A stretch of DNA of 42,925 nt from Escherichia phage DE3. The DNA lies in sequence record EU078592; one strand, given 5' to 3'. The notes beneath the pieces were generated by a model that searched no databases, was not told the DNA's origin, and saw only the letters and a program-made list of their open reading frames with translations. Shown piece by piece: positions 39,730-42,175 of this stretch. Position 1 is the first letter of the stretch; every line of letters begins with the position of its first letter. Both the position numbers and the translations under genes were made by a program.

Positions 39730-40935
39730 ATGGCAGTAAAGATTTCAGGAGTCCTGAAAGACGGCACAGGAAAACCGGTACAGAACTGCACCATTCAGCT
39801 GAAAGCCAGACGTAACAGCACCACGGTGGTGGTGAACACGGTGGGCTCAGAGAATCCGGATGAAGCCGGGCGTTACAGCATGGATGTGGAGTACGGTCAG
39901 TACAGTGTCATCCTGCAGGTTGACGGTTTTCCACCATCGCACGCCGGGACCATCACCGTGTATGAAGATTCACAACCGGGGACGCTGAATGATTTTCTCT
40001 GTGCCATGACGGAGGATGATGCCCGGCCGGAGGTGCTGCGTCGTCTTGAACTGATGGTGGAAGAGGTGGCGCGTAACGCGTCCGTGGTGGCACAGAGTAC
40101 GGCAGACGCGAAGAAATCAGCCGGCGATGCCAGTGCATCAGCTGCTCAGGTCGCGGCCCTTGTGACTGATGCAACTGACTCAGCACGCGCCGCCAGCACG
40201 TCCGCCGGACAGGCTGCATCGTCAGCTCAGGAAGCGTCCTCCGGCGCAGAAGCGGCATCAGCAAAGGCCACTGAAGCGGAAAAAAGTGCCGCAGCCGCAG
40301 AGTCCTCAAAAAACGCGGCGGCCACCAGTGCCGGTGCGGCGAAAACGTCAGAAACGAATGCTGCAGCGTCACAACAATCAGCCGCCACGTCTGCCTCCAC
40401 CGCGGCCACGAAAGCGTCAGAGGCCGCCACTTCAGCACGAGATGCGGTGGCCTCAAAAGAGGCAGCAAAATCATCAGAAACGAACGCATCATCAAGTGCC
40501 GGTCGTGCAGCTTCCTCGGCAACGGCGGCAGAAAATTCTGCCAGGGCGGCAAAAACGTCCGAGACGAATGCCAGGTCATCTGAAACAGCAGCGGAACGGA
40601 GCGCCTCTGCCGCGGCAGACGCAAAAACAGCGGCGGCGGGGAGTGCGTCAACGGCATCCACGAAGGCGACAGAGGCTGCGGGAAGTGCGGTATCAGCATC
40701 GCAGAGCAAAAGTGCGGCAGAAGCGGCGGCAATACGTGCAGAAAATTCGGCAAAACGTGCAGAAGATATAGCTTCAGCTGTCGCGCTTGAGGATGCGGAC
40801 ACAACGAGAAAGGGGATAGTGCAGCTCAGCAGTGCAACCAACAGCACGTCTGAAACGCTTGCTGCAACGCCAAAGGCGGTTAAGGTGGTAATGGATGAAA
40901 CGAACAGAAAAGCCCACTGGACAGTCCGGCACTGA
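39730..40935 (+). CDS. stf: Side tail fibre N-terminal segment (orf-401), contains long Ala/Ser/Thr-rich repetitive tract
   Basis: MAVKISGVLKDGTGKPVQNCTIQLKARRNSTTVVVNTVGSENPDEAGRYSMDVEYGQYSVILQ...; ORF track begins 2 codons upstream. Confidence 0.88.
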   Translation: MAVKISGVLKDGTGKPVQNCTIQLKARRNSTTVVVNTVGSENPDEAGRYSMDVEYGQYSVILQVDGFPPSHAGTITVYEDSQPGTLNDFLCAMTEDDARPEVLRRLELMVEEVARNASVVAQSTADAKKSAGDASASAAQVAALVTDATDSARAASTSAGQAASSAQEASSGAEAASAKATEAEKSAAAAESSKNAAATSAGAAKTSETNAAASQQSAATSASTAATKASEAATSARDAVASKEAAKSSETNASSSAGRAASSATAAENSARAAKTSETNARSSETAAERSASAAADAKTAAAGSASTASTKATEAAGSAVSASQSKSAAEAAAIRAENSAKRAEDIASAVALEDADTTRKGIVQLSSATNSTSETLAATPKAVKVVMDETNRKAHWTVRH

Positions 40936-41311
40936 CCGGAACGCCAACAGCACCAACCGCGCTCAGGGGAACAAACAATACCCAGATTGCGAACACCGCT
41001 TTTGTACTGGCCGCGATTGCAGATGTTATCGACGCGTCACCTGACGCACTGAATACGCTGAATGAACTGGCCGCAGCGCTCGGGAATGATCCAGATTTTG
41101 CTACCACCATGACTAACGCGCTTGCGGGTAAACAACCGAAGAATGCGACACTGACGGCGCTGGCAGGGCTTTCCACGGCGAAAAATAAATTACCGTATTT
41201 TGCGGAAAATGATGCCGCCAGCCTGACTGAACTGACTCAGGTTGGCAGGGATATTCTGGCAAAAAATTCCGTTGCAGATGTTCTTGAATACCTTGGGGCC
41301 GGTGAGAATTC
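40902..41311 (+). pseudogene. stf: Side tail fibre downstream segment (orf-314 5' part) in another frame, truncated at EcoRI site 41306-41311
   Basis: Hand translation shows this frame open from at least 40902, overlapping the orf-401 stop; ATG at 41109 (MTNALAGKQPKNATLTALAGLSTAKNKLPYF...). Confidence 0.8.
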
Positions 41312-42175
41312 TAAGCGGAGATCGCCTAGTGATTTTAAACTATTGCTGGCAGCATTCTTGAGTCCAATATAAAAGTATTGTGTACCTTTTGCTGGGTCAG
41401 GTTGTTCTTTAGGAGGAGTAAAAGGATCAAATGCACTAAACGAAACTGAAACAAGCGATCGAAAATATCCCTTTGGGATTCTTGACTCGATAAGTCTATT
41501 ATTTTCAGAGAAAAAATATTCATTGTTTTCTGGGTTGGTGATTGCACCAATCATTCCATTCAAAATTGTTGTTTTACCACACCCATTCCGCCCGATAAAA
41601 GCATGAATGTTCGTGCTGGGCATAGAATTAACCGTCACCTCAAAAGGTATAGTTAAATCACTGAATCCGGGAGCACTTTTTCTATTAAATGAAAAGTGGA
41701 AATCTGACAATTCTGGCAAACCATTTAACACACGTGCGAACTGTCCATGAATTTCTGAAAGAGTTACCCCTCTAAGTAATGAGGTGTTAAGGACGCTTTC
41801 ATTTTCAATGTCGGCTAATCGATTTGGCCATACTACTAAATCCTGAATAGCTTTAAGAAGGTTATGTTTAAAACCATCGCTTAATTTGCTGAGATTAACA
41901 TAGTAGTCAATGCTTTCACCTAAGGAAAAAAACATTTCAGGGAGTTGACTGAATTTTTTATCTATTAATGAATAAGTGCTTACTTCTTCTTTTTGACCTA
42001 CAAAACCAATTTTAACATTTCCGATATCGCATTTTTCACCATGCTCATCAAAGACAGTAAGATAAAACATTGTAACAAAGGAATAGTCATTCCAACCATC
42101 TGCTCGTAGGAATGCCTTATTTTTTTCTACTGCAGGAATATACCCGCCTCTTTCAATAACACTAAACTCCAACAT
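41306..42175 (-). pseudogene. ea59: ea59 5' fragment (N-terminal ~290 codons incl. Walker A GRNGCGKT); 3' part deleted at EcoRI junction
   Basis: Minus ORF 41237..42175 MLEFSVIERGGYIPAVEKNKAFLRADGWNDYSF...; sequence context changes at GAATTC. Confidence 0.8.

Follow-up and report, generated by a model that had tools for sequence, protein, structure and literature searches.

The question raised by this locus is why two open reading frames on opposite strands both break at one and the same EcoRI hexamer, and whether the DNA missing between them was removed by design or lost spontaneously. The stretch of DNA analysed, hereafter the window, comprises the 42,925 nucleotides of Escherichia phage DE3 (EU078592). 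An earlier note, made from the letters alone, had proposed a deletion in the b region of the phage with its junction at GAATTC (41306–41311), resulting from the removal of a single EcoRI fragment of about 4.9 kb. The analysis described here supports this core reading; the deletion is man-made and already documented.

Alignment of the whole window to the lambda reference NC_001416 (blastn) gives six collinear blocks, two of which meet at the proposed junction. The left block (lambda 1–21231; window 20081–41311) is 99.98% identical to lambda and the right block (lambda 26104–27723; window 41306–42925) is 100% identical; the only overlap between the two is the hexamer GAATTC at window 41306–41311, which bears out the proposed position. 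Lambda has EcoRI sites at 21226, 26104, 31747, 39168, and 44972. The left endpoint of the deletion coincides exactly with site 1 (21226) and the right endpoint exactly with site 2 (26104); the two flanks hence map to different EcoRI sites, and in no lambda record does an alignment run continuously across 41306 to one lambda locus. The 200 bp on either side of the junction are identical to the respective lambda flanks, and the surroundings of lambda 21226 and 26104 have zero bases in common outside the hexamer, on either side. The missing DNA amounts to 4878 bp (26104 minus 21226), consistent with the single fragment proposed, with zero bases gained or lost at the junction.

The window contains four EcoRI sites (8473, 13552, 16550, and 41306), which correspond to lambda sites 3, 4, and 5 and to one fused 1/2 site. 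The junction itself (41306–41311) is thus a single regenerated GAATTC joining lambda 21226 to 26104. The right end of the b region is undeleted: window 42176–42925 matches lambda 26974–27723, the P arm of attR, at 100% identity, and stops just before the att core. In the BL21(DE3) chromosome the bases directly following the end of the window are the att core, GCTTTTTTATACTAA, and then bacterial DNA.

The window can be identified as the DE3 prophage of E. coli BL21(DE3). Its whole sequence occurs without a single change in the chromosome of that strain (NC_012971.2, 748396–791320; 42925/42925 bases), extending from the core at attL up to the base that immediately precedes the core at attR; the bacterial genes next to it are ybhC at one end and ybhB/bioA at the other. 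Strain tables (PMC10269513, PMC8359068) give the genotype as 'λ DE3 = λ sBamHIo ΔEcoRI-B int::(lacI::PlacUV5::T7 gene1) i21 Δnin5'; since this genotype names ΔEcoRI-B, the lesion described here already has a name.

All remaining items of the published genotype are likewise present in the window. The sBamHIo marker is seen at 25584–25589, where lambda BamHI site 5505 has been destroyed by a point change from GGATCC to GGATAC. The int gene is split by a 4442-bp insert (255–4696, plus strand), the T7 cassette, which contains lacI, a lacZ fragment, and the T7 RNA polymerase gene; the BamHI sites flanking it, at 249 and 4698, are the only two in the window. A phage 21 immunity region (11109–12971; 100% identity to phage 21 and to lambda imm21) replaces lambda 34382–38590. 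The nin5 deletion, in which lambda 40502–43297 is absent (a loss of 2806 bp), is joined within a 10-bp direct repeat, CACGAACCTG (14876–14885), which is not a restriction site. There is one HindIII site in the window, and the HindIII site at lambda 44141 has been destroyed by two substitutions.

The distribution of the junction was examined using a 401-bp probe centred on it, which was compared with 5426 complete E. coli genomes. In 19 of these the junction is intact, with the probe matching over its full length at 100% identity, and all 19 are named as DE3 lysogens or BL21-type laboratory strains; the carriers include BL21(DE3) several times, C41, C43, BLR, BL21-Gold, Nico21, Rosetta2, BL21 Star, and BAP1. 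A further 88 genomes have matches, none of which spans the junction, and most of those genomes listed carry the two halves of the probe at separate places. Among 50,697 phage records, the junction is spanned in DN1 only. DN1 comes from a BL21(DE3) batch culture, in the lysate of which it was isolated. Its annotation gives a DE3-derived left arm and transduced bio genes, and it demonstrates that a phage with the deletion can form plaques.

An origin other than by design would require a spontaneous deletion in the b region, of the b2, b221, or b527 kind, which arose by illegitimate or microhomology-mediated recombination and ended by coincidence at two GAATTC sequences. Spontaneous deletions are common in the non-essential DNA of lambda, the nin5 deletion in the same window is one, and a repeat of 6 bp might in principle suffice for such an event in the b region. 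Nonetheless, the two junctions in the window differ in kind. That of nin5 lies within the 10-bp repeat CACGAACCTG, as is typical of a spontaneous deletion, in contrast to the EcoRI junction, where the homology is an exact 6-bp restriction site with zero extra bases. Were the endpoints to fall at random within the 8.1-kb b region, they would land on this pair of sites with a probability of 3e-8; if deletions formed between identical hexamers only, the EcoRI pair would still be just one of the 11,579 such pairs in the region. The genotype given in the published strain tables, moreover, names the lesion as ΔEcoRI-B (PMC10269513, PMC8359068). The coincidence of two restriction sites and the documented genotype together effectively refute a spontaneous origin, which we consider highly improbable.

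An apparent deletion could also be produced by an artefact of assembly or sequencing, with the reference assembly collapsed between two copies of a short repeat. No observation lends this specific support; a 6-bp repeat is far too short for assembly collapse, the same junction recurs at 100% identity in the 19 complete-genome records, which stand under separate accessions, and it is found again in the separately sequenced phage DN1. The probability of such an artefact is, in our view, negligible.

We therefore assign the junction to the engineered 'ΔEcoRI-B' deletion (Δ(srIλ1-2)) of a lambda cloning-vector backbone, as carried by the DE3 prophage of BL21(DE3), with a probability of about 0.97. 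This assignment is based on the exact endpoints, the lost gene content, the exact match to BL21(DE3), and the vector markers which accompany the junction, and we saw no data which contradict it. In its construction, lambda DNA would have been cut by EcoRI, the 4878-bp piece from site 1 to site 2 (21226 to 26104) omitted, and the two cohesive AATT ends ligated, regenerating one GAATTC. The fragment lies entirely within the non-essential b region, so the phage stays viable, and its removal yields 4.9 kb of packaging room. The sequence alone is equally compatible with cutting and ligation in vitro and with EcoRI cleavage in vivo followed by rejoining in a restricting host. We take the step to have been done in vitro, as part of the EcoRI-vector work of the 1970s. 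The first EcoRI lambda vectors are reportedly those of Thomas, Cameron & Davis (1974), Murray & Murray (1974), and Rambach & Tiollais (1974), and the deletion presumably reached DE3 via the vector D69, a route which we associate with Mizusawa & Ward (1982) and Studier & Moffatt (1986).

Together with the fragment, a BamHI site (22346) and two HindIII sites (23130 and 25157) are removed. The other BamHI losses are those of 5505 (point mutation), 34499 (via imm21), and 41732 (via nin5); the sole BamHI site remaining in the parent is 27972 in int, which is where the T7 cassette (lacI-lacUV5-T7 gene 1) sits. The sites removed thus suit a vector with a single BamHI cloning site, at 27972 in int.

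According to the lambda annotation, site 1 lies inside orf-314 (21029–21973, plus strand), the open reading frame downstream in stf, and site 2 inside ea59 (25396–26973, minus strand); both of these frames do break at the EcoRI hexamer, as the earlier note had described. The interval which it considered ends at the ea59 start codon (42175), and starts, at 40902, just inside 40899, where the orf-314 frame becomes open. Lost with the fragment are everything in orf-314 beyond codon 68 (the C-terminal part of stf), the whole of tfa, ea47, and ea31, and ea59 from codon 291 to codon 525. The tblastn results agree with the list of lost genes given previously (the rest of stf, tfa, ea47, ea31, and the 3′ half of ea59): only residues 1–68 of orf-314 and the N-terminal residues 1–290 of the 525 of Ea59 are found in the window, and Tfa (orf-194), Ea47, and Ea31 have no match anywhere in it, second copies included (E≤1e-3), whilst J, Lom, and orf-401 are complete. 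With no match to Tfa in the window, the prophage is, as had been proposed, without a tail-fibre assembly gene. The further proposal that it has no complete Ea proteins holds for ea47, ea31, and ea59 of the b region, but not for ea8.5 (6103–6381), ea22 (6576–7121), and ea10 (10265–10630), which are intact elsewhere in the window, each at full length and 100% identical.

Two chimeric open reading frames run across the junction. The first, on the plus strand (41109–41372), encodes 87 residues, i.e. residues 1–68 of orf-314 followed by 19 residues from the antisense strand of ea59. A Pfam scan of this product found no Pfam domain; the Collar and fibre-repeat domains which Pfam identifies in orf-314 (residues 73–191) are inside the deleted part. 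The second, on the minus strand (41237–42175), encodes 312 residues, of which 1–290 are those of Ea59 and the last 22 come from reading orf-314 in antisense. This chimera retains the Walker A motif GRNGCGKT (195–202) and has lost the C-terminal AAA_21/AAA_15 segment (Ea59 residues 310–430; Pfam); against the PADLOC PtuA and PDC-M01A profiles, it covers the N-terminal ~295 of 510–520 positions. RefSeq labels for it are hypothetical protein, P-loop NTPase, or ABC-domain protein, with WP_000889232.1 being a 'hypothetical protein'.

The side tail fibre gene carries an additional lesion upstream of the junction. The N-terminal part of stf, orf-401 (39730–40935, plus strand; 401/401 residues aligned, 99.75% identity), ends at the premature stop caused by the lambda PaPa frameshift. 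By comparison with the 774-residue Stf of a K-12 J53 lysogen, one C is missing at about window 40913, and this missing C is evidently the 1-bp frameshift of lambda PaPa which splits stf into orf-401 and orf-314. Since stf was already frameshifted in the laboratory lambda parent, it was not the deletion itself that deprived the phage of working side tail fibres; an inactivating event had preceded the loss of stf and tfa, the side tail fibre having been non-functional before vector building.

A separate observation concerns wild-type lambda and the genes lost, rather than the origin of the junction. Full-length lambda Ea59 matches the PADLOC model for PtuA, the Septu ATPase (PDLC00282; E=5e-184, residues 4–522 of 525), and the PDC-M01A model (E=4e-201), and contains the Pfam domains AAA_21 and AAA_15; the full-length protein thus has the features of a PtuA-like ABC/AAA ATPase. 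For Ea31, the best 25 PADLOC matches listed include only PDC-M01B models (best E=6e-113) and no PtuB model, and no match to Pfam was found; RefSeq calls the protein an HNH endonuclease, and ea31 and the end of ea59 have 4 bases in common. Ea47 has no match in PADLOC. By their PADLOC matches, Ea59 and Ea31, which ΔEcoRI-B removes, look like a phage-borne ATPase-nuclease pair of Septu-like type.

From these profile matches, it is conceivable, although in our judgement rather unlikely, that the deleted ea59-ea31 pair is a functional phage-borne anti-phage system of the Septu-like (PtuA/PtuB) type. Were this the case, all λDE3 lysogens and ΔEcoRI-B vectors would be without a superinfection defence possessed by wild-type lambda lysogens, and the 312-residue chimera, with residues 1–290 of Ea59 and the Walker A motif, would be an inert or at most dominant-negative remnant. 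Among the papers searched, none mentions Ea59 together with Septu or PtuA; the Septu-like family assignment is already implicit in the PADLOC models.

The engineered junction is real and fully explained, being a documented lesion of one very widely used E. coli strain. The deletion marks the window as a laboratory construct (λDE3 in BL21(DE3)), not a natural prophage, and the gene losses, the 87- and 312-residue chimeras, and the pattern of restriction sites are therefore not to be read as biology or evolution. It also provides a sequence-level check, which favours the correct DE3 genotype over the erroneous but still widely copied 'ind1 Sam7' version.

Amongst the known derivatives of lambda, the λDE3 prophage of BL21(DE3) is the same object as the window, equal to it base for base with no difference. 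In the EcoRI-deleted lambda vectors of the 1970s–80s (λgt-type, D69), the fragment between sites 1 and 2 was removed for capacity and unwanted sites were shed; these vectors combine the deletion with imm21 or imm434 substitutions, nin5, and point-mutated sites. Unlike EcoRI vectors, the window still contains EcoRI sites 3 to 5 of lambda (31747, 39168, and 44972; window 8473, 13552, and 16550), which argues that its phage was built for BamHI cloning in int and not as an EcoRI vector. By contrast, λgt10 combines b527 with mutated EcoRI sites (PMC2966988).

The b527 deletion, as sequenced in λgt10, is 3.6 kb in length and removes the att site, whereas that in the window spans 4878 bp, has a restriction site at either end, and spares the P arm as far as the att core; identity of the two was rejected on the grounds of the difference in size and of the removal of att by b527 (PMC2966988). 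The att site of the window's phage is functional, as is evident from its integration at attB between ybhC and ybhB/bioA. As with spontaneous b deletions, non-essential genes of the b region, including ea47, ea31, and ea59, are gone from the window and lytic growth is unharmed. The endpoints of such deletions bear no relation to restriction sites and typically lie in short direct repeats of arbitrary sequence, a trait which the junction in the window does not share.

Overlay of the window on the wild-type lambda prophage of K-12 J53 reveals the same DNA on both sides of the junction: the left flank (2313 bp) is identical save for a single 1-bp gap and the right flank (1620 bp) has 100% identity. 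Unlike the window, J53 has the full 4878 bp between the EcoRI sites, with the 774-residue Stf, Tfa, Ea47, Ea31 (annotated there as an HNH endonuclease), and the 525-residue Ea59; its stf is of the 'Ur-lambda' type, in which the extra C keeps the gene in frame.

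The BL21(DE3) genotype in wide circulation is given either as 'λ(DE3 [lacI lacUV5-T7 gene 1 ind1 sam7 nin5])' or as 'cIts857 ind1 Sam7' (PMC3149613, PMC4353339, PMC7237710). The sequence of the window contradicts the widely copied 'ind1 Sam7' designation: the lambda S gene (window 16764-17087) is an exact wild-type copy, so Sam7 is absent from the window, and the immunity region (window 11109-12971) is of the phage 21 type, and therefore cannot carry lambda cI857 or ind1. Two sets of point changes are removals of restriction sites. A HindIII site is altered from AAGCTT to TATCTT at window 15719-15721 (lambda 44141-44143), a change missing from the commonly quoted genotype string, and a BamHI site is altered from GGATCC to GGATAC at window 25588 (lambda 5509). 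The nin5 deletion removes 2806 bp (lambda 40502-43297). Its junction, at window 14876-14885, lies inside a perfect 10-bp direct repeat (CACGAACCTG) which is found at both lambda endpoints; a junction so placed is the classic signature of spontaneous deletion.

Small differences from the lambda reference (J02459/NC_001416) occur in the left arm, and comprise a 1-bp gap at window 20218 (lambda 138), a 1-bp insertion after lambda 14266 (window 34346, corresponding to lambda 14267), and the substitution A20661G (window 40741). The last of these is probably a variant of, or an error in, the reference sequence, because K-12 strain J53 has the same base in its lambda prophage, with zero mismatches to the window. 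The insertion falls between L and K; with the start that PGAP assigns to K (a C40 peptidase) at window 34312, the K product is longer than that in the lambda record. Further along the arm, a run of C residues in the side tail fibre gene stf (window ~40909-40914) has one C fewer than in the J53 prophage, where stf is a single ORF of 774 aa. The missing C is the lambda PaPa frameshift, which divides stf into orf-401 and orf-314, and stf has thus been hit twice in the DE3 prophage.

The lysate of a BL21(DE3) culture yielded DN1 (MF374379, 1-6901), a transducing phage of the lambda-bio type that forms plaques. In DN1 the left arm of DE3, with the ΔEcoRI-B junction, is followed by attR and then by bacterial ybhB-bioA-bioB. 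Its recovery shows that the DE3 prophage, with its disrupted int, can still yield viable phage via aberrant excision.

Of the ea59-ea31 stretch of the lambda b region (lambda 24509-26973, minus strand), a remnant of ea59 persists at window 41306-42175. No connection between Ea59 and Septu was found in the literature searched, and Ea47 matched none of the PADLOC models. Lambda Ea59 matched PADLOC PtuA, the Septu ATPase, over its full length (E=5e-184), and likewise PDC-M01A, whilst Ea31 matched PDC-M01B (E=6e-113). On the basis of these model matches, Ea59 and Ea31 resemble a putative Septu-like defence pair.
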